DNA of 64,000 bases from an uncultured Candidatus Bathyarchaeia archaeon (lineage in GTDB: Archaea > Thermoproteota > Bathyarchaeia > TCS64), in NCBI GenBank assembly GCA_964559475.1, contig CAZLHX010000001.1, positions 49 through 64,048 on the forward strand. Reading direction: 5' to 3'. Under the pieces are notes generated by a model. It searched no databases and was not told the origin of the DNA. It saw only the letters and a list, made by a program, of their open reading frames with translations. Position 1 is the first letter of the stretch, and every line of letters begins with the position of its first letter. Below, in pieces: positions 5,409 through 63,950 of this stretch. The position numbers and the translations under genes were made by a program.

Positions 5409-5714
5409 ATGGCAAGTATCCCCCTAAATGAACAAATAAAGTGGCTTAAAACAAGACAAGAAGCATTACTCGATGATGTAATCAGCAACTTGGATGACAT
5501 TCCTGAAAAAATTCAGAAAGAAATAATAAGCGATCTCATAAAATATGTAAGAATAAGTCAAGAAATACAAAATCTAGGTTTTTTAGCAATACTAACACAT
5601 ATGGTTGAGACTCAATCAGCCATTGATGATGAACTTATGGACATATCTGACTACATGGCCACGATTCTAAGTATTCATAGAAAAGAAGCAGAAAACCTTG
5701 AGAAGCTAATTTAA
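5409..5714 (+). CDS. Hypothetical small helical protein
   Basis: 101-aa ORF in an otherwise non-coding gap. No recognisable motif. Confidence 0.35.
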   Translation: MASIPLNEQIKWLKTRQEALLDDVISNLDDIPEKIQKEIISDLIKYVRISQEIQNLGFLAILTHMVETQSAIDDELMDISDYMATILSIHRKEAENLEKLI

Positions 5715-5748
5715 TCATAATTCTAAAATAAAAAATCTAAATACTGAA

Positions 5749-5764
5749 CTATCAATATTGATAG
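5749..5764. promoter_or_regulatory. Perfect 16-nt palindrome ctatcaatattgatag, directly followed by the TATA-like ctataaata, upstream of tfb
   Basis: Read directly from the sequence. It lies between the stop of 5409..5714 and the tfb start. Confidence 0.3.
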
Positions 5765-5911
5765 CTATAAATACATTCGTAGTATATTCTATACAAGTTT
5801 TTACAAGAATAGTATAAAATAAATCACTGGGATTAATCTTCATCATGTAAATTACTTGATAAACAATTATAAGTGAAAACCCCATGTCATTACTTGACTC
5901 TGAGGGGTTAA

Positions 5912-6835
5912 GTGGTTATTTTACAGAAAAGCTCGGAAAAATGCTCAGTTTGCGAGTCAAAAAATATTATCATGGATATGGAAACTGGGGAAATAGTATG
6001 TAGAGACTGCGGTTATGTACACGCGGATAATTCAATAGATACTGGCCCCGAATGGAGGGCCTTTAATCTTCAACAGAGAGAAAATAGAACCAGAACCGGA
6101 GCCCCCATTAAACTTACTATACACGACCACGGATTAAGCACATCAATAAGCAGAAGAAATAGAGACTATGCTGGTAGAAACCTAAAACCAGATGTAAGAA
6201 GCCAGTTCTACAGACTTCGAAAATGGAATAGGAGAACCAAGGTAACTGATAGTACCCAGAGAAACTTAGCCAAAGCATTAAGCTACATGACGCACCTGGC
6301 AAATGAGTTAAGTTTACCCCAAAATATCTCGGAGACGGGAGCAATAATTTATAGACAGGTTCTCAAGAAAGGTGCTACGCGAGGAAGAACTATCAGGAAT
6401 CTAGTAGTCGCATCATTGTATATTGCTTGTAGAATCTGTGGTGTATCTAGGTCTCTAAAGACTTTTGCTGAGGAGGCTAATATTACAAAGAAAGAGGCAG
6501 CTCGAAATTACCGATATTTACATAATCTTTTAGATAAAGATATACCAGGGATTAGCACAGGAAAGGTAATTTCAAAACTGGTCAAACAACTAAAACTATC
6601 TGGAAATGTAGAGAGAGTTGCATTGGATCTTCTGAATACTGCGACTGATATGAAACTTACTTCAGGTAAAAGTCCTACTGGAATAGCTGCTGCTTGTATA
6701 TATGTTGGTTGTAGAATTACTGGGGAGAAAATAACTCAACATAAAATTGCCGCGAAAGGGAAGATTACTGAGGTTACTATAAGAAACAGGTATAAAGAGC
6801 TAGTCAAACGGATGGATATTAAGACGGCTATTTAG
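5912..6835 (+). CDS. tfb: Transcription initiation factor IIB (TFB)
   Basis: 307 aa. The N-terminal Zn ribbon is CSVCES..x..CRDCGYV. A B-reader motif (GPEWRAF) and two cyclin-fold repeats follow. GTG start is preceded by GAGGGG. Confidence 0.95.
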   Translation: MVILQKSSEKCSVCESKNIIMDMETGEIVCRDCGYVHADNSIDTGPEWRAFNLQQRENRTRTGAPIKLTIHDHGLSTSISRRNRDYAGRNLKPDVRSQFYRLRKWNRRTKVTDSTQRNLAKALSYMTHLANELSLPQNISETGAIIYRQVLKKGATRGRTIRNLVVASLYIACRICGVSRSLKTFAEEANITKKEAARNYRYLHNLLDKDIPGISTGKVISKLVKQLKLSGNVERVALDLLNTATDMKLTSGKSPTGIAAACIYVGCRITGEKITQHKIAAKGKITEVTIRNRYKELVKRMDIKTAI

Positions 6836-7016
6836 AGGAAGTCTGTTCAACACTCATTTTTATCATCCAATTTATGGGAGTATCTAGTTTACGATTACGC
6901 TTAGCAAAGTGTTTACATTTGTGATATTCTTTGAGGCAGAGGGATACAAAGAAGAACTTTGTAACTCTGAATTTGCAATTCTTTAGATAAGGGCACCCAT
7001 CTGACCTTTTACTCAT
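6828..7016 (-). CDS. Hypothetical small basic Cys-rich protein
   Basis: 62 aa with the pattern C-x5-C-x12-C-x6-C (GCPYLKNC...CLKEYHKC). It converges on tfb and overlaps it by 8 nt. Confidence 0.3.
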   Translation of the reverse strand: MSKRSDGCPYLKNCKFRVTKFFFVSLCLKEYHKCKHFAKRNRKLDTPINWMIKMSVEQTSSK

Positions 7017-55442: not shown

Positions 55443-57359
55443 TTGACCTCTATGCCTCTTCCTGAAGATGAAAATGGAACTTTATTAATAATTGATCTTA
55501 GCGATAAAAAAATCGAAGTTGAGGATATCCCCCCTGAAATCCATAGAAAATATCTCCTAGGCTTGGGATATAACACCTGGTTATTATATCAAAAAACAAA
55601 TAAGGAAACAGATCCTTTTGGCAAAGATAACGTAGTCATTATATCACCCGGTATTTTAACTGGTACGGATGCTCCTGCAAGTTGTAGGGTGGAAGTGACA
55701 ACTAAGTCACCTCTCACCGGTATACTTGGTACTGGGAACTCTGGAGGATACTGGGGTCCAAGGTTCAAAAGAGCAGGATATGACTCATTACTTATTCATG
55801 GAGCCTCCCATAAACCAGAATATATCGTAATTGAAGACCAAGAGATTCAGTTTTTTGATGCAGAACCCTACTGGGGGCTTGATGTTTATGAGACCTTTGA
55901 TCAGCTATCTAAGCAACATGGTTCAGAGTTTAGTCAGATGGTTATAGGACCAGCTGGAGAACGTCTGGTCCGGTTCGCTGCTCCAGTCTTTGATAAGCAG
56001 CATATGCCTGGCAGATGCCATGTTGGAGGAGTGCTTGGTAGCAAAAAGTTAAAGGCTGTACTTGTAAAAGGTTCGGGATCTGTAGAGCCAAGATATCCTC
56101 AAGTCTTCAAAGAGGCGTCAAGATCAGTTGAAGAAAGGATCCAAGATTATCCTGCTTGGAGAGCTCGTGCTAAAGCGGGCTCCATGGGAACAATTGGAAT
56201 GACGGAAAAAGGCATTGATTATGATGATATTGTGGGGCCCTATCTTAAACGTGGAAAACCTGGTATATACTGTCCCTGTTCCTTAGAGGCGTTATATGGA
56301 TGCAACTTAATCACAGACGTAAAAGAGGGCCCTTATAGCGGAGTTGAGGTTGCCTGTGCTGGATTGACTCTTTACTCTGGTACCGCTCAGAGGTATGGAG
56401 TGAGTATTCCAGCAGCCTTCTATATCAATGAACTATGCCAAAGATTAGGGATGGACATGTTTGGGCCCTTTTTCTATATCTATGAACTAGTCAAACGAGG
56501 AATAATAACAGAAAAACAACTGGGTTTCAGTCTTGAACCTGGAAATGAAGAGGACCTTATGAGACTCATAAAAATGGTTGGATATAGGGAAGGGTTTGGT
56601 GATGTTCTAGCTGAAGGTTCATCGAGGATAGCTGAAAGAATTGGTGATAAAGCAGCAAAATACTCTCCGGTAGTTAAAGGATTGGAGGTTATGACTCCTG
56701 ATCCTCGGACAGATCTTAAAGGAAACATTTTCACATCCATGAGTATTCTCACAAATCCTCGCGGTGGAGATGACCTGAAGGGGACTCACGGAGTCTCGAA
56801 TTATCCCGGTTATGCTAGCTGGGCGAAAAAAATTGAAGTACCCGAGGATGACTATTCTAAATGGATATATGAATGGTTGGATATTCCCCCTGAATATAAG
56901 AAAAGGGTATTCGGAGACCCACCGGATACATCCAATCCAGACGAGTTACTGATGACTATATGGTATAATCACCTAACAAGCGTATACAACAGTCTAGGCA
57001 TATGCATGTTCGCATCCAGCGTAGCTGAAGTAATAGGACCAACTCAATTAGCCAACCTCTATTCAGCAGCGACAGGAAATCATCTTACTGCAGAGGAGAT
57101 CATGGAGACGGGTGAGAGAATATTCAACCTAATGAGAGTATACATCAACAAACAGGGGATCACCGCAAAGGACGACCATTGGCCAGAAATCTACTATAAT
57201 GAACCCGGACTCGCGGGAAAGGATGAAGCACCACCCTTTAATAGAACCAGATTTCAAAAAGAACTCGAACGATATTACAAAATCAGAGGATGGGACCCAG
57301 ACACAGGCAAACCTCTGCCTGAAATACTAAAAAAATTAGGTATAAAAATAAATGAGTAA
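55443..57359 (+). CDS. Aldehyde:ferredoxin oxidoreductase family tungstoenzyme
   Basis: 638 aa with the AOR N-terminal domain (LLIIDLSDKKIEVEDI) and GNSGGYWG. Length and C-terminus (YYKIRGWDPDTGKP) are typical. Confidence 0.9.
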   Translation: MTSMPLPEDENGTLLIIDLSDKKIEVEDIPPEIHRKYLLGLGYNTWLLYQKTNKETDPFGKDNVVIISPGILTGTDAPASCRVEVTTKSPLTGILGTGNSGGYWGPRFKRAGYDSLLIHGASHKPEYIVIEDQEIQFFDAEPYWGLDVYETFDQLSKQHGSEFSQMVIGPAGERLVRFAAPVFDKQHMPGRCHVGGVLGSKKLKAVLVKGSGSVEPRYPQVFKEASRSVEERIQDYPAWRARAKAGSMGTIGMTEKGIDYDDIVGPYLKRGKPGIYCPCSLEALYGCNLITDVKEGPYSGVEVACAGLTLYSGTAQRYGVSIPAAFYINELCQRLGMDMFGPFFYIYELVKRGIITEKQLGFSLEPGNEEDLMRLIKMVGYREGFGDVLAEGSSRIAERIGDKAAKYSPVVKGLEVMTPDPRTDLKGNIFTSMSILTNPRGGDDLKGTHGVSNYPGYASWAKKIEVPEDDYSKWIYEWLDIPPEYKKRVFGDPPDTSNPDELLMTIWYNHLTSVYNSLGICMFASSVAEVIGPTQLANLYSAATGNHLTAEEIMETGERIFNLMRVYINKQGITAKDDHWPEIYYNEPGLAGKDEAPPFNRTRFQKELERYYKIRGWDPDTGKPLPEILKKLGIKINE

Positions 57360-57577
57360 ACTATTCGGTCTAAGATAAAGAAGAAACTATTTCGAATATA
57401 TCCATTATCTTTGGATCAGAGAGCTGATAAAATATTATACTATCTTTACGACTTTATTCTGCTTTATTTTCCTCAATTAATTGGATTTTAAGTTTTATTC
57501 AGGTAATTCACCTTTTAATGAAAGGTATATTTGAGCGGTATATTTCAGAACAAAGATATTATAGAAATATTCAATAA

Positions 57578-57964
57578 TTGTTGGTATTAATTGGCTATGG
57601 TGTTCTTGTGTTAAATGAGTTTCTATGGAAAAATAGAGTTTTAGTTGTCTTGGGTGATGCTGATACAAAATCTAAACAGAGATATATTCTTGATCAAGCA
57701 ATAGATGGTGTTATAGATAGAGATATGGTGATTCTTGGATTCAATAAACATGAAGAACCTTACTATAAGTGGAATGACACAAAGCTTGATATAATATCAG
57801 AAGAATTTAACCTAAACAGTGATGATAATATAATCTTGTTTGGTAAAGATGGAACAATAAAAGCAAAATGGAGGGAACCAGTCACTGTTGAAGAGATTTT
57901 CCAAATTATTGACGCGATGCCTATGAGGAGGGCGGAAATGCGTCGAAGAAAAGGCGGAGAATAG
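57578..57964 (+). CDS. DUF4174 domain protein (thioredoxin-like fold)
   Basis: 128 aa. WKNRVLVVL, ILFGKDGTIKAKW and IDAMPMRRAEM match the DUF4174 consensus. Confidence 0.7.
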   Translation: MLVLIGYGVLVLNEFLWKNRVLVVLGDADTKSKQRYILDQAIDGVIDRDMVILGFNKHEEPYYKWNDTKLDIISEEFNLNSDDNIILFGKDGTIKAKWREPVTVEEIFQIIDAMPMRRAEMRRRKGGE

Positions 57965-59422
57965 TTGGAAGCTACAGTAGTTTTCCCAAATCAGTTATTC
58001 AAAAATAACCCTCACCTAGAAAAAAACGTTCGAGTATACTTGGTAGAAGAGGACGCATACTTCAGGAGATATAGATTCCATAAGAAAAAACTCATATTAC
58101 ACAGAGCCTCCATGAAGTCTTTTAATGACGAGTTGAAAGACTTTGAAGTAACTTACATTCAAAACAAGAAAAATAAGACTCTTGATGAATTATTTAAACT
58201 TCTTACTAAAGATGAGGTAGCGCTGATTAACCTCACAGAAGTGCTTGATTATAGACTTGAGGATTTATTGGTAAAATATTCAGAGAAACACAATATTCGT
58301 CTAAATATTAAGGATAGTCCTGGTTTTCTAACAGATATTGACTGGATTAGAAATTTCTTCTCTTCAAAAAAGTATAGTATGACGAGTTTCTATATAGCTC
58401 AACGTAAAAGACTTGAGGTCCTAGTTGAGGGTGAGAAGCCTATTGGTGATAAGTGGAGCTTTGACCCTGAGAACAGAAGAAGATTACCAAAAGAGATAGA
58501 GTTACCTGATCTATGGGTCCCAGTTCCTGGTGATTACGTAAAAGAAGCAGAAGAGTATGTGAATACAAATTTTCCTGAAAACCCTGGAAGTGGTACTGAC
58601 TTTGAGTATCCAATAAACCAGAAGCAAGCTAAAAAATGTCTTGGGGACTTCATTGAGAACAGATTAGAGTTATTTGGTGATTACCAGGATGCGATATCAA
58701 AAAGAAGCCAATTTTTGTTTCATTCAGTACTATCTCCGAGTTTAAATATTGGCTTACTTACACCTCGACAGATATTAGAAAAAGTCCTTTCTTCTCATGA
58801 GGTTAAAGAATTTCCTATGAACAGCATTGAAGGCTTCATCCGCCAATTAATCGGGTGGAGAGAATACATGAGAGCAGTATATATTTTAAGACATGATGAA
58901 TTTATCAGTAGAAATTACTGGGATCATGATAAATCTTTGCCCGCTTCATTTTACGATGCTAGCACAGGTATAGAACCCTTGGATGATACTTTGAGGAAAG
59001 TGAACCAAACTGGGTACGCACAGCATATAGAAAGGTTGATGATCTTGGGTAACTTTTTTCTCTTAGCTAAGATTAAGCCAAGTGAAGTTTACAGGTGGTT
59101 TATGGAGATGTTCATCGACTCATATGAATGGGTCATGGAGCCCAACGTGTTAGGCATGAGTCAATACGCTGATGGCGGGGGAATTACCACTAAACCATAT
59201 GTGAGTTCAAGTAACTATATCAGACGTATGAGTGATTATGGTAAAGGAGATTGGAGCGATATCTGGGATGCCCTCTTCTGGAACTTTATTGCCGAAAATA
59301 AAGAAAAAATCTATGAGATACCCCGGATGAGAGTAATAATTTACAATCTGGAGAAAATGCCTGATAATAAAATTAAAAAATATAGCCAACTAGCAAAAGA
59401 GACCATAAAACTACTGCAATAA
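57965..59422 (+). CDS. Cryptochrome/photolyase family protein of the FeS-BCP / PhrB-CryB (prokaryotic 6-4 photolyase) lineage, without the Fe-S ligands
   Basis: 485 aa with EGFIRQLIGWREYMR, GYAQHIERLMILGNF, YEWVMEPNVLGMSQYADGG and KPYVSSSNYIRRMSDY. A TTG start is forced, because a TAG lies directly upstream in frame. Confidence 0.8.
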   Translation: MEATVVFPNQLFKNNPHLEKNVRVYLVEEDAYFRRYRFHKKKLILHRASMKSFNDELKDFEVTYIQNKKNKTLDELFKLLTKDEVALINLTEVLDYRLEDLLVKYSEKHNIRLNIKDSPGFLTDIDWIRNFFSSKKYSMTSFYIAQRKRLEVLVEGEKPIGDKWSFDPENRRRLPKEIELPDLWVPVPGDYVKEAEEYVNTNFPENPGSGTDFEYPINQKQAKKCLGDFIENRLELFGDYQDAISKRSQFLFHSVLSPSLNIGLLTPRQILEKVLSSHEVKEFPMNSIEGFIRQLIGWREYMRAVYILRHDEFISRNYWDHDKSLPASFYDASTGIEPLDDTLRKVNQTGYAQHIERLMILGNFFLLAKIKPSEVYRWFMEMFIDSYEWVMEPNVLGMSQYADGGGITTKPYVSSSNYIRRMSDYGKGDWSDIWDALFWNFIAENKEKIYEIPRMRVIIYNLEKMPDNKIKKYSQLAKETIKLLQ

Positions 59423-59541
59423 AGATTCATAAACGCGACTTTGTTCTAGGTATAAGTCAGAAAATTTGACTCCATTACTCTAGAAAACTAGGCTAATTGT
59501 CAGGTTAATATATTTTGAACTTAGATTATTAGAGTATTAAA

Positions 59542-60897
59542 ATGATCCAAGGGGAACGCATTAAAAAATTAAATACTAATGAGGTTCAAGACGGAGAATA
59601 TCTACTATACTGGATGCAATCTAGCGTCAGAACAACCTACAATCATGCCTTAGAGTATGCGGTAAGAGAGGCTAACAAGTCTAGTAAACCTCTGATAGTT
59701 TTCTTCGGAATCACGCCCACGTACCCAGAAGCAAACCTAAGGCATTTTACTTTCATGTTAGAGGGACTTAAAGATACGAAGAAAGCAATGTTAAGAAGAA
59801 ACATTGATCTGATCATAAATAAAATTTCACCTGACCTAGGAGCCGTAAAATTTGCTAAAAAAGCGTCCACCGTGCTAACAGATAGAGGGTATACAAGAAT
59901 TCTAAGAAAGTGGCGAGAAAACGTCGCAAGTAAAATTAAGTGCCCATTAATCCAGGTAGAGAGTGATATAATCGTACCAGTAGAGGAAGCTTCAGAGAAG
60001 GAAGAATACGCCGCTAGAACAATTAGACCAAAAATAAAGAAAAAACTCGATAAATTCCTAGTTCCATTGAAGGAAACTAAACTCAATGATCAATACGGGG
60101 AAGAATTTGATTCTCTTAATTTAAGTTCGCCAAAAGAATTAGCTAAAAAATTAAAGGTTGACCAAAGTGTTAGACCCGTCTCAAAATATAAGGGAGGACA
60201 AACGGAAGCTAAAAAACACCTCAAAACATTCCTTGATGAAAAACTTGACGATTACCATGAAATCAGAAACGATCCAACAAAGGACTTCCAATCTAATCTA
60301 AGCCCCTACCTCCATTTCGGTCAAATCAGTCCCCTTGAGATTGCCTTAAAAGTTCAGGGGACAGATAGCCCGGGGAAAGAAGCTTTTTTAGAGGAATTGA
60401 TCATAAGACGAGAGTTGGCTATTAATTACGTTTACTATAACTCCAAATATGATTCATATGATGGGATAACAGATTGGGCGAAAAAAACCCTGAGAGAACA
60501 TGAAGATGACCCCAGAGAATATATTTACAGTTTCAAAGATCTGGAATTAGCCAAGACTCATGACCCTTACTGGAACGCCGCTCAGATGGAGATGGTAATA
60601 ACCGGAAAGATGCATGGATACATGAGGATGTACTGGGGGAAAAAGATACTAGAATGGTCGAAAAATCCTGTTACCGCACTTAATACAGCACTTGAATTAA
60701 ATAATAAATATGAACTGGATGGAAGAGACCCCAACAGTTATACAGGTGTAGCATGGTGTTTTGGAAAACACGACAGACCCTGGAAAGAAAGACCCATCTT
60801 TGGCAAAACAAGATACATGAATAACAGAGGTCTGGAAAGAAAGTTCGACATAGAAAAATATGTAGAAAAAATTAATGAGTTATCAAAGACAATATAA
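59542..60897 (+). CDS. phr: Class II CPD photolyase
   Basis: 451 aa with YLLYWMQSSVR, RNDPTKDFQSNLSPYLHFGQIS, THDPYWNAAQMEMVITGKMHGYMRMYWGKKILEW and ELDGRDPNSYTG. Confidence 0.92.
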   Translation: MIQGERIKKLNTNEVQDGEYLLYWMQSSVRTTYNHALEYAVREANKSSKPLIVFFGITPTYPEANLRHFTFMLEGLKDTKKAMLRRNIDLIINKISPDLGAVKFAKKASTVLTDRGYTRILRKWRENVASKIKCPLIQVESDIIVPVEEASEKEEYAARTIRPKIKKKLDKFLVPLKETKLNDQYGEEFDSLNLSSPKELAKKLKVDQSVRPVSKYKGGQTEAKKHLKTFLDEKLDDYHEIRNDPTKDFQSNLSPYLHFGQISPLEIALKVQGTDSPGKEAFLEELIIRRELAINYVYYNSKYDSYDGITDWAKKTLREHEDDPREYIYSFKDLELAKTHDPYWNAAQMEMVITGKMHGYMRMYWGKKILEWSKNPVTALNTALELNNKYELDGRDPNSYTGVAWCFGKHDRPWKERPIFGKTRYMNNRGLERKFDIEKYVEKINELSKTI

Positions 60898-60992
60898 GAC
60901 CCTCAAGTTACAGAAGAAATTATTATTTTTATATTTGAGTATTCTTAAATCAAAAAACTATATTAGTGCATACTCCCCCGTAACCTGATTAA

Positions 60993-63950
60993 ATGTATAA
61001 AAGATTAAACCGGTTAATCATTCCTTTAACCCTATTTCTAATCGTTATAACAATCAAGTTCCCTGCAGTGCAAGCAGCACAGAGCACCATCACAGGATAT
61101 AATACCCAAACAGATTGGTTTGCAGGAGGAGTTGGCTTATCATCTGATAGAGCAACTATGACTATTAACCTACTTACTGGAACAACTTATGGAAAATTAA
61201 CCGGCAGAGGAGACCTAGTTCGTCTGAATGAAACAACTGAAGAATATTATAAAGCGGGATATGGGTTATGGAGTCTCACATTAACAGGTTCGTATACTGG
61301 AAAACTACAAGGAACTGGTACAGGTTCTGTGAGTGGAACAATCACCGGCATTAAAGATGGTGATGCTCTAAATATAGGGGTAGGTGGTACCTGGAGCCTA
61401 GAGTTAGATGCCACTCTCGGAGGCATGATTCTAGAGATATACCCTACTTATAGTAACAAGCCCTCTGATATCAGCTACACAAACTTCCTTCAAAGGGTTT
61501 TATTATTTCAGCCTATTAAAGAAGCTGGAAGTCTAAGTCTTGAAATATTCCCTGGACAGCTATATATCTCAGAACCAGGAACGTATCGATTACTTCTAAA
61601 AACAGAGCTATTTGATAAAAGTGGGATGCCGATCCCAGACCGTAAAATTCTGTTCGATGTGAACTCGCCAATCCCGGTAGTCCAATTGCCTTCAAGTTCC
61701 ACAAATCAGGATGGCGCGATATCAACTAGTCTTTATGTGACTGTACCTGACCTGAATTACCTTCCCCAAGATATCGTTGTTTCAGCAAGTGAACCACTAT
61801 CAGATGTCGGCGTTTCTAATCTGGTATCTATCGAACAGACTCAAGTGAAACTAGAAATTGAGAGTGTATCTCCAGCAAACCTTCAAGATAATATATGGAT
61901 TACGGACGCAAACAACATAGTTGTCACCGGAAAAGTACAAGGTCTCGAGATTGAATCCATAGAGATGGTAGCAGACGTTGACTCTGTTAATAGCTCCTAC
62001 GTCTATGATAATCGACCTGAAGTAGACCAGGAGGGTTCTTTTTCTGTGCCTATAAGCTTCTATACAGCTGGTTCAGAGTATAAGTTAACTGTTACAGCGA
62101 GTGATGATAAAGGGATAACAGTAAGCGATACCGTGACGGTCAAATATCTAGGGCCATCTCTTGTTAAGATAATCAGTGTGTCTGCCCCTGAGCGGGTAGA
62201 TCCTACCTTATATGATAGCTTTGATGTTGATATAACAGTAAGAACAGTAAGTGCAGAACCCACCAACCTCTACCTAGATTTAATAATAGTACCCTATAGT
62301 ACCCAGAAGGTCTTGCAAGTAGAGGCGGGGGACTTTATCCACCAAGTATCATTCAATGTACCGATCAGCCCCTTCCAAACAGTAGGATTCAAGCCATCCC
62401 AAGAAGGAACCCTTCATACTCTTTTGTATACCGGTGACTCTGAAAAACAGCAGGCTCAACAAACAGACAATCAGGGTGGCCTCGGAGAAATTATTGGAAA
62501 GACGGATAATGGAAGCGGGGATACGGAGACTTTTGATGTCCCAGAGATCAGTGAAGAGGATATCGGTATAACAGTGAATATTGATTATTCCCTTCCGTAC
62601 CCTGAAAACCGGGGCGTAGGAAATGACCGCTTCGAATGTGAAACAAAGCAGTGGACTAGATATAGCAGGCACAGTAATGTCCTCGATGACTTAAAAGCAG
62701 GGAAAAAAACCTTTCCTCAATGGGTCGAAGCCTTAGGTGTTGGAACAAATGTTCAATGGACTATGACTGGAAACATTGAATTTGAGATTATTTCAGCGAC
62801 AATTGAGGTTATAAGGTTACCGTACAACTTTCCTGAAGGAGATACTATCTATGTTACAAGTGAAGAAATAATAAAAGACGGCTTGGTACAGTCCCTGTCT
62901 AAGAGGTGGGGTAAAAATAGAGATATACCATCTGGGGAGTACAAGATCAGAGTAACATATCGCGTCCAATATACTTTGGAAAATGAAGTGATAGAACAAG
63001 AGTTCCAGAAGACAAGCAGAATATCTTTCCATATCAACCCTAAGAGGGTTGATCCATGTGGTGAAGATTTCGATCACCAACAACTCTATGAAGAAAAAAC
63101 CTACGAAGTAAATCGTGGTAGGACCGATTTAAACCTGAATAAACAGGGAGACAGATCAACAGGTTCATTCAACCCAGGTGCAACAACAAGCGGAGTACTA
63201 GGCGGATTAAGCAAACCAGAGATACATACAGTATCAATTACTGATGTGCAGATTAGTAAAGAACCCATTACACTATTTTTAGACTGGGATGACGAAGCTG
63301 CTGACTTAGACTTGACATTGATTGATCCATCAGGCAGGTCTTTAGGATATATTTACGGCGCAGGTATAGTGGTAAATGGGATACCGGGCACAGAGTATAG
63401 TGGTAATGATGTTAAACCTGAATGGATTAAGCTTTACAAGACTATTGAAGGTGAATACCTAATATCAGTATATTTGGCAAAGTCAGAAGGTCCTGTTGAT
63501 GCTTGGATCCAGTTAGGTGAAGCAGGCGGTTCTGGATTAACTGTAAATGAGCATAGTATCGGTAGAAGTATAGATGAGAACGGTTTCCTCGAAGAGGCTG
63601 GTTTCCTTTTCAGTCCAAAAGATCTTGTTTACAGCCATGTTAGCTTTTCCGGGATAGAGATAGGAGATATTGTAAGTTGGGTTTTCACAGGCCCCAATGG
63701 ACAAAGTTCTGAAGAAGCAATAGCCATGGAGTATGAAGGAGATGCTTTTGCTTATGCTCCTATAGATCTTCGTAATTATCCAAGTGAAGACGTTGTAGGG
63801 TCATGGAGTGTTGATGTATATGTAAACGATTCAATGGTTTCAACTGCTTCATTCGAAGTTAACCCTATTGGTGATTTAATACCCGGGTACCCGATGATAT
63901 CAATACTAATTGCGGTAATATTTCTAGTCTATTCAATTAATAAGCATTAA
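60993..63950 (+). CDS. Large secreted or surface-anchored protein with Ig-like repeats, a PPC (pre-peptidase C-terminal)-like domain and a C-terminal TM anchor
   Basis: 985 aa. The signal peptide is LIIPLTLFLIVITIKFPAVQA|AQ. A PPC-like motif is WDDEAADLDLTLIDPSGRSLGY. The C-terminus is IPGYPMISILIAVIFLVYSINKH. Confidence 0.7.
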   Translation: MYKRLNRLIIPLTLFLIVITIKFPAVQAAQSTITGYNTQTDWFAGGVGLSSDRATMTINLLTGTTYGKLTGRGDLVRLNETTEEYYKAGYGLWSLTLTGSYTGKLQGTGTGSVSGTITGIKDGDALNIGVGGTWSLELDATLGGMILEIYPTYSNKPSDISYTNFLQRVLLFQPIKEAGSLSLEIFPGQLYISEPGTYRLLLKTELFDKSGMPIPDRKILFDVNSPIPVVQLPSSSTNQDGAISTSLYVTVPDLNYLPQDIVVSASEPLSDVGVSNLVSIEQTQVKLEIESVSPANLQDNIWITDANNIVVTGKVQGLEIESIEMVADVDSVNSSYVYDNRPEVDQEGSFSVPISFYTAGSEYKLTVTASDDKGITVSDTVTVKYLGPSLVKIISVSAPERVDPTLYDSFDVDITVRTVSAEPTNLYLDLIIVPYSTQKVLQVEAGDFIHQVSFNVPISPFQTVGFKPSQEGTLHTLLYTGDSEKQQAQQTDNQGGLGEIIGKTDNGSGDTETFDVPEISEEDIGITVNIDYSLPYPENRGVGNDRFECETKQWTRYSRHSNVLDDLKAGKKTFPQWVEALGVGTNVQWTMTGNIEFEIISATIEVIRLPYNFPEGDTIYVTSEEIIKDGLVQSLSKRWGKNRDIPSGEYKIRVTYRVQYTLENEVIEQEFQKTSRISFHINPKRVDPCGEDFDHQQLYEEKTYEVNRGRTDLNLNKQGDRSTGSFNPGATTSGVLGGLSKPEIHTVSITDVQISKEPITLFLDWDDEAADLDLTLIDPSGRSLGYIYGAGIVVNGIPGTEYSGNDVKPEWIKLYKTIEGEYLISVYLAKSEGPVDAWIQLGEAGGSGLTVNEHSIGRSIDENGFLEEAGFLFSPKDLVYSHVSFSGIEIGDIVSWVFTGPNGQSSEEAIAMEYEGDAFAYAPIDLRNYPSEDVVGSWSVDVYVNDSMVSTASFEVNPIGDLIPGYPMISILIAVIFLVYSINKH

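Follow-up and report, generated by a model that had tools for sequence, protein, structure and literature searches.

A probable cluster-free (6-4) photolyase encoded beside a class II CPD photolyase in an uncultured Bathyarchaeia archaeon

The idea that a [4Fe-4S] cluster defines the FeS-BCP class of photolyases traces to Oberpichler et al. As reported by Ma et al. (2018, bioRxiv 10.1101/366252), about 30% of the family is without the four cysteines that hold the cluster, and the cluster-free PromaPL of Prochlorococcus marinus repairs (6-4) lesions in a Mg2+-dependent manner. PromaPL was expressed poorly, and in vitro it was poorly loaded with FAD and had very little activity (10.1101/366252). 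Chen et al. (2022, PMC9178010) sorted 110 prokaryotic (6-4) photolyases into seven subgroups, only one of which, subgroup M (20 members, PromaPL among them), is without the cysteines, and proposed that the name FeS-BCP be used only for the cluster-bearing subtype. The same statement on Cys-less members was made in 2025 (PMC12082625). The cluster-free branch is already described (2018, 2022 and 2025) with one member assayed, and the low activity of that member limits what can be claimed for the branch as a whole (10.1101/366252). A first-pass annotation of the DNA analysed here had treated the cluster as a defining feature of the class, a view that these three papers have made outdated. Our literature search found no paper on Bathyarchaeia photolyases.

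We analysed a stretch of 64,000 nucleotides (the window) from an uncultured Candidatus Bathyarchaeia archaeon. One of its genes encodes a 485-aa protein which, with a probability of about 0.85, is a working (6-4) photolyase that depends on FAD, is stimulated by Mg2+ and belongs to the described cluster-free branch (subgroup M, PromaPL type). This gene and its immediate surroundings are listed below.

57578..57964, plus strand: DUF4174 gene, 128 aa, no Cys (Pfam PF13778, 2.5e-19); its TAG stop abuts the photolyase TTG
57953..57967, plus strand: junction GGCGGAGaaTAGTTG, with GGCGGAG (Shine-Dalgarno-like), TAG (end of DUF4174) and TTG (start of the photolyase)
57965..59422, plus strand: putative cluster-free prokaryotic (6-4) photolyase gene, with a DPRP N-terminal and a FAD-binding helical domain (PF04244, PDB matches, AF2/Foldseek)
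59542..60897, plus strand: class II CPD photolyase gene, 451 aa (PF00875, 2.4e-24), 119 nt after the (6-4) photolyase gene

The photolyase reading frame is intact from its TTG start to its TAA stop. Pfam assigned residues 5-215 to PF04244 (DPRP; 1.8e-49, 169 bits with a cut-off of 22.1 bits), and PF03441 (FAD_binding_7) gave a weak match (1e-4, 22.2 bits) under its cut-off of 27. The best PDB sequence matches were prokaryotic (6-4) photolyases throughout, with Agrobacterium PhrB (4dja, 6.4e-81) at the top and Caulobacter Cc(6-4)PL (9hnk), Synechococcus SePhrB (8ijy), Rhodobacter CryB (3zxs) and Vibrio Vc(6-4)PL (7ykn) among the others; E-values for PhrB, Cc(6-4)PL, CryB and Vc(6-4)PL spanned 1e-60 to about 5e-81. 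Structure prediction, which the first-pass annotation had proposed as a check, gave an AF2 model with a mean pLDDT of 94.2 and a pTM of 0.94 from a 112-sequence alignment (A1), and the pLDDT was 89-98 over the roof region (residues 411-450). When compared by Foldseek, the model matched PhrB with a TM of 0.95 and an rmsd of 2.3 Å. The top 11 Foldseek matches were prokaryotic (6-4) photolyases only (query-normalised TM 0.89-0.95), and the next class reached at most 0.62. The protein is a member of the PhrB/CryB family (DPRP/CryPro), and its fold matches that family including the C-terminal roof subdomain.

The loss of all four ligands had been proposed from motifs in the protein and from a comparison with PhrB. 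All of these motifs were found in the intact frame, namely KKCLGDF at aa 223, EGFIRQLIGWREYMR at aa 289, IEPL at aa 336, GYAQHIERLMILGNF at aa 350, LGMSQYADGG at aa 396 and KPYVSSSNYIRRMSDY at aa 410. The Cys of KKCLGDF (C225) is the only one in the protein, as had been said, and is not conserved. The PhrB strings used in that comparison, MNCM and SDYCDTCRYD...CPFNALYWDF, also agree with the sequence of PDB 4dja. In a global MAFFT alignment of 269 sequences the Cys1 column was out of place, with PhrB C350 opposite a gap in the query; the ligands were therefore mapped from a HMMER pairwise alignment to 4dja, motif regular expressions and local segments. In the pairwise alignment Cys350 of PhrB faces Pro338, Cys438 and Cys441 fall into a gap (SDY-------GK...), and Cys454 faces Asp432, or Ser431 when close homologues guide the alignment. 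The predicted deletion of about 10 aa was borne out as well, since the distance from MSDY to (L/F)(Y/F)W is 11 residues in the 485-aa protein versus 21 in PhrB. The 21-aa linker is also present in Cc(6-4)PL and in two further relatives, P0244 and P0263. The two sites lie as follows.

58976..58978, plus strand: Pro338 codon, at the site of PhrB Cys350 (Fe-S ligand 1) by pairwise mapping
59240..59272, plus strand: 11-residue linker GKGDWSDIWDA, where PhrB has a 21-residue CxxC...C segment with ligands 2-4

The strict FeS-BCP pattern C-x86-89-C-x2-C-x12-15-C (C350, C438, C441 and C454 in PhrB) is absent from the protein. Because the whole protein has one, non-conserved Cys, a displacement of the ligands, for which an alignment check had been advised, is excluded. 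To judge from its sequence, the 485-aa protein cannot hold a Cys-ligated [4Fe-4S] cluster, and the earlier reading of it as a cluster-free variant stands. The purified protein would probably carry no metal cluster.

The frequency of Cys-less members, which the first-pass annotation had wished to see surveyed, was determined in 120 best 90%-identity clusters and 150 best 50%-identity representatives, the latter being the best 150 of 1001 clusters from an exhaustive HMMER search (E<=1e-30). The motif count was made on the 267 sequences that were at least 400 aa long. Among these nearest sequences, just two (P0244 and P0263) have the pattern C-x80-95-C-x2-C-x8-20-C, and 265 of 267 are cluster-free. 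The 11-residue linker was found in 170 of the 187 relatives that could be parsed; 120 of the 170 have a single Cys at the S431 position, and 49 have none, as in the query. With each prokaryotic species represented by a single genome, a scan found signature peptides of the clade in at least 595 species genomes. The best 80 loci belong to Bacteroidota, Verrucomicrobiota, Planctomycetota, Chlamydiota, Patescibacteria, Actinomycetota, Ignavibacteria, Methanosarcinales, Methanolinea and others, and none of the 77 ORFs that could be extracted from the best 80 loci (many phyla) has the four-Cys motif.

The former ligand sites carry conserved residues instead. Among the 265 cluster-free relatives, Pro338 is shared by 250, Asp340 by 254, Trp430 by 252, Trp434 by 225 and Asp435 by 237. 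The replacement motif of the cluster-free branch reads TG-I-x-P-x-D plus K-G-x-W-[C/S]-x-[IV]-W-D-x-L-[YF]-W, and the four cluster-bearing sequences have x-C-[MLV]-A and Y-C-x-x-C...A-C-P-F-N at the same sites. Since the cluster-free sequences have these replacement residues in common, the loss of the cluster is, as far as the compared relatives tell, old, shared and compensated rather than a recent lesion of the window gene. The conserved Pro, Asp and Trp residues would take over from the metal in keeping the C-terminal roof subdomain together.

A quick maximum-likelihood tree was rooted at its midpoint; its rows included PhrB and Cc(6-4)PL. The query fell in a clade of 117 rows with no FeS-motif member, set apart by a branch of 100% SH-aLRT from a 34-row side with PhrB, Cc(6-4)PL and the two other FeS-motif sequences (P0244 and P0263). 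Together with P0001, P0004, P0005 and P0006 the query formed a 100%-supported clade with P0010 as its sister, next to which stood Aminicenantes sequences and then Bacteroidota. To judge from the survey, the 485-aa protein is a typical member of a large cluster-free branch. It belongs to the family and has lost the four Cys, by which it is probably a member of subgroup M.

For the active site, the roles of the mapped residues were taken from published work, namely Mg2+ binding by D179 and D254, catalysis by H366 and contact with the lesion by Y424 (10.1101/366252), and the proximity of E403 to flavin N5 (PMC9178010). The window protein is 31-32% identical to the strict FeS-BCPs PhrB (4dja) and Cc(6-4)PL (9hnk), each with a TM of 0.95. 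Eight residues of these enzymes are kept: D179, D254, H366 and L370 as D167, D242, H354 and L358, and Q306, R183, W390 and Y424 as Q294, R171, W378 and Y412. All eight are invariant in A1, and a His is present at the His354 position in 263 of 265 relatives. Leu358 stands where eukaryotic (6-4) photolyases have a second His. Two codons of this region are given here.

59024..59026, plus strand: His354 codon, equivalent to the catalytic His366 of PhrB
59135..59137, plus strand: Met391 codon, flavin-N5-proximal, equivalent to PhrB Glu403 and SePhrB Met399 (significance from PMC9178010)

Compared with PhrB and Cc(6-4)PL, the window protein has no [4Fe-4S] ligands, a roof loop ten residues shorter and Met in place of Glu403. 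This Met391 is invariant in A1, and all 77 ORFs recovered from named genomes have Met there. The photoreduction chain is changed as well (W342 to Y330, Y391 to F379 and Y395 to F383), and the DMRL D-loop YVGH of PhrB (Y-V-x-H) is replaced by R35-Y36-R37-F38, which is not of the DMRL type. The residues M391, Y330, W378 and F379 thus give a Met near N5 and no intact W-W-Y chain, which is the majority state of subgroups Chl, HC, Ac and M (PMC9178010). Non-ABG subgroups have no intact electron-transfer chain, and 74% of their members have a Met close to N5 (PMC9178010). The altered chain was counted against a working photolyase, as it bears on how the flavin is kept reduced.

SePhrB (8ijy; 30% identity, TM 0.94) resembles the window protein in its Met at the N5-proximal site and its D-loop of non-DMRL type, but differs in having the four Cys with the cluster and an 8-HDF antenna. 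A CofG/CofH search of the 96%-complete host genome gave no match above cut-off; hence the host is unlikely to make an 8-HDF antenna itself. A close likeness is with PromaPL and subgroup M, which belong to the same family (DPRP/CryPro), are likewise without all four Fe-S cysteines, retain the catalytic His as well as the two Asp residues that bind Mg2+, and have a Met near flavin N5, as do most non-ABG subgroups, with no intact PhrB-type chain. The window protein differs from them in its host, a Bathyarchaeia archaeon versus a cyanobacterium for PromaPL, and in the DUF4174 gene coupled to it. The repair chemistry is predicted to be unchanged: photoexcited FADH- would give an electron to the lesion, with help from His354, Tyr412 and a Mg2+ ion that Asp167 and Asp242 coordinate.

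The gene downstream encodes a protein that matches the Methanosarcina mazei class II CPD photolyase 2xry with an E-value of 4.5e-111. The (6-4) and class II CPD photolyases would together form a small accessory photoreactivation island by which both major UV photoproducts are covered. The host genome, a 2.76-Mb MAG (96% complete, 7.7% contamination), carries archaeal ribosomal protein S8e; its only DPRP gene and its only PF00875 photolyase gene are the two adjoining genes of the window. A DPRP match was obtained in 3 of 401 genomes of the class Bathyarchaeia, all three of the window's genus, and in 2 of 41 close relatives, the window's own genome included. The other two genomes (G003 and G118) contain a different version of the (6-4) photolyase, about 52% identical, cluster-free and with a single Cys. 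In these (G003:C68 and G118:C32, loci L011 and L119) the class II CPD gene precedes the (6-4) photolyase gene, the reverse of the window's order, and the pair is about 52-58% identical; DUF4174 was not detected beside the (6-4) photolyase gene at either locus. Opposite order and low identity within one genus suggest two independent acquisitions of the photolyase pair.

The G+C content is 0.34-0.37 across 57.0-61.0 kb, which holds the DUF4174 and photolyase genes, versus 0.40-0.45 in the preceding 7 kb; the low value at 57000-61000 is consistent with a laterally acquired island. Lateral acquisition is inferred because of patchiness, composition and tree position, and the genus seems to have gained the photolyase pair, as an accessory module for photoreactivation, more than once. 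A search for an empty site by way of the flanking AFOR gene led to same-genus orthologues (72% identity) whose other neighbours all differ from those in the window, and it yielded no insertion site.

Contamination of the archaeal bin by a bacterial contig was considered and rejected, as archaeal Wood-Ljungdahl and methanopterin genes lie on the same contig, which exceeds 64 kb, and as the gene order of the locus recurs in an independent metagenome contig. This contig (L028), which encodes a 91%-identical protein, has AFOR, DUF4174, (6-4) photolyase, class II CPD photolyase and 985-aa surface protein genes arranged as in the window. The last of these is the ORF at 60993-63950 (plus strand) in the window; its 985-aa product has a signal-like segment at the N-terminus and ends in a hydrophobic tail (…PGYPMISILIAVIFLVYSINKH). 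It resembles archaeal surface proteins that are sorted or anchored by a C-terminal signal, and no Pfam match was recorded for it in L028.

The neighbourhoods of two more distant members of the query clade (L004 and L005, 57-60% identity) are rich in genes related to light and oxidative stress, including Redoxin/AhpC, Fe/Mn superoxide dismutase, carotenoid synthesis, amine-oxidase (phytoene-desaturase-like), tocopherol cyclase, DUF1722 with 2-thiouracil desulfurase, and a PF00875 photolyase. At the bacterial locus of P0010 (L025), a 470-aa gene with no Pfam match (5597-7009) sits between the cluster-free (6-4) photolyase and PF00875 photolyase genes, all on a single strand.

Upstream, the GGCGGAG lies 5 nt ahead of the photolyase TTG, and the junction GGCGGAGaaTAGTTG suggests translational coupling of DUF4174 and photolyase. 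A DUF4174 gene lies upstream of the photolyase gene in every readable locus of the query clade (57-91% identity). The loci besides the window are these.

L028, 5470-5853: Cys-less DUF4174 gene upstream of the photolyase gene
L004, 5585-5932: Cys-less DUF4174 gene upstream of the photolyase gene
L005, 5647-6000: Cys-less DUF4174 gene upstream of the photolyase gene
L006, 1284-1649: Cys-less DUF4174 gene upstream of the photolyase gene

The TAG abuts the photolyase start in L028, L005 and L006. Programmed read-through or fusion at an in-frame TAG was rejected as a general rule, because L004 has a TAA, an 11-nt spacer and another frame. When 80 other genome loci (flanks up to 3 kb) were searched by tblastn with the window's DUF4174 protein, none showed the pairing, and the called genes of three bacterial photolyase loci did not contain it either. 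As it has no Cys, the DUF4174 protein is not a redox-active thioredoxin. A PDB sequence search with it returned no relative, and a literature search found no link between DUF4174 and photolyases. In a scan for sigma-70 promoters and intrinsic terminators, which is unsuited to archaea, sites were no commoner than in shuffled sequence. It is a tentative and on balance unlikely proposal that, in the query clade (57-91%), the photolyase is always made together with the Cys-less DUF4174 protein (thioredoxin-like fold) as its dedicated partner. If so, DUF4174 could offset the missing cluster, for example by helping the photolyase to fold or to stay stable, or as a subunit that handles cofactor or DNA, and the two proteins would make up an undescribed two-component photolyase.

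Other readings of the gene were weighed against a repair enzyme. The first-pass annotation had suggested that the protein may have become a photoreceptor, and it is conceivable that it acts mainly as a blue-light photoreceptor or regulator of the cryptochrome type, as proposed for Rhodobacter CryB, instead of in repair. Regulatory roles are reported for RsCryB of the same family (PMC9178010); the canonical Trp/Tyr photoreduction chain is altered, and a Met beside flavin N5 could alter the flavin photochemistry. The host, moreover, is probably an anaerobic sediment archaeon: it appears anaerobic with a Wood-Ljungdahl pathway, so exposure to light is not obvious, and this too was counted against a working photolyase. 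However, the residues for lesion binding and catalysis, those for Mg2+ included, are all invariant across the clade, and the adjoining class II CPD partner, present in two gene orders within one genus, speaks for repair. The gene has no regulator or signalling gene beside it, and the sole cluster-free member assayed repairs (6-4) lesions (10.1101/366252). The suggestion thus found no support here, and we consider a photoreceptor improbable.

The missing cluster itself might be taken in two further ways. A metal centre could persist at the old cluster site through non-Cys ligands, e.g. Asp340 and Asp435, two near-invariant Asp residues which adjoin former ligand positions 1 and 4, where PhrB has Ala and Asn. 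Yet this site has no conserved His or Cys, the binding loop is ten residues shorter, and the conserved Trp430 and Trp434 fit a hydrophobic filling of the cavity. To our knowledge an all-carboxylate [4Fe-4S] site is without precedent, which also counts against such a centre, and we regard it as very improbable. Alternatively, the gene could be a decaying remnant whose protein became unstable or inactive after a recent loss of the cluster. Cys mutants of cluster-bearing enzymes are insoluble, no soluble protein having been obtained (PMC12082625), and the poor expression and low activity of PromaPL (10.1101/366252) point the same way. Against decay, the reading frame is intact here and in relatives at 82-91% identity, the roof is confidently modelled, and the loss is ancient, common to hundreds of species and accompanied by a conserved replacement motif, so decay seems extremely improbable. 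A functional cluster-free (6-4) photolyase is therefore the reading that we prefer.

The absence of the cluster, taken as such, matters little, as cluster-free prokaryotic (6-4) photolyases are already published and abundant in databases. All solved structures of the family among the Foldseek matches carry the cluster, and no cluster-free structure exists. Such a structure would show how the roof is stabilised without metal, for which the replacement motif provides a testable hypothesis, and would bear on what the cluster does. Few of the Bathyarchaeia genomes searched have the photolyase pair (3 of 401), and its presence suggests that some of the mostly sediment-dwelling, anaerobic Bathyarchaeia live within reach of light and UV.
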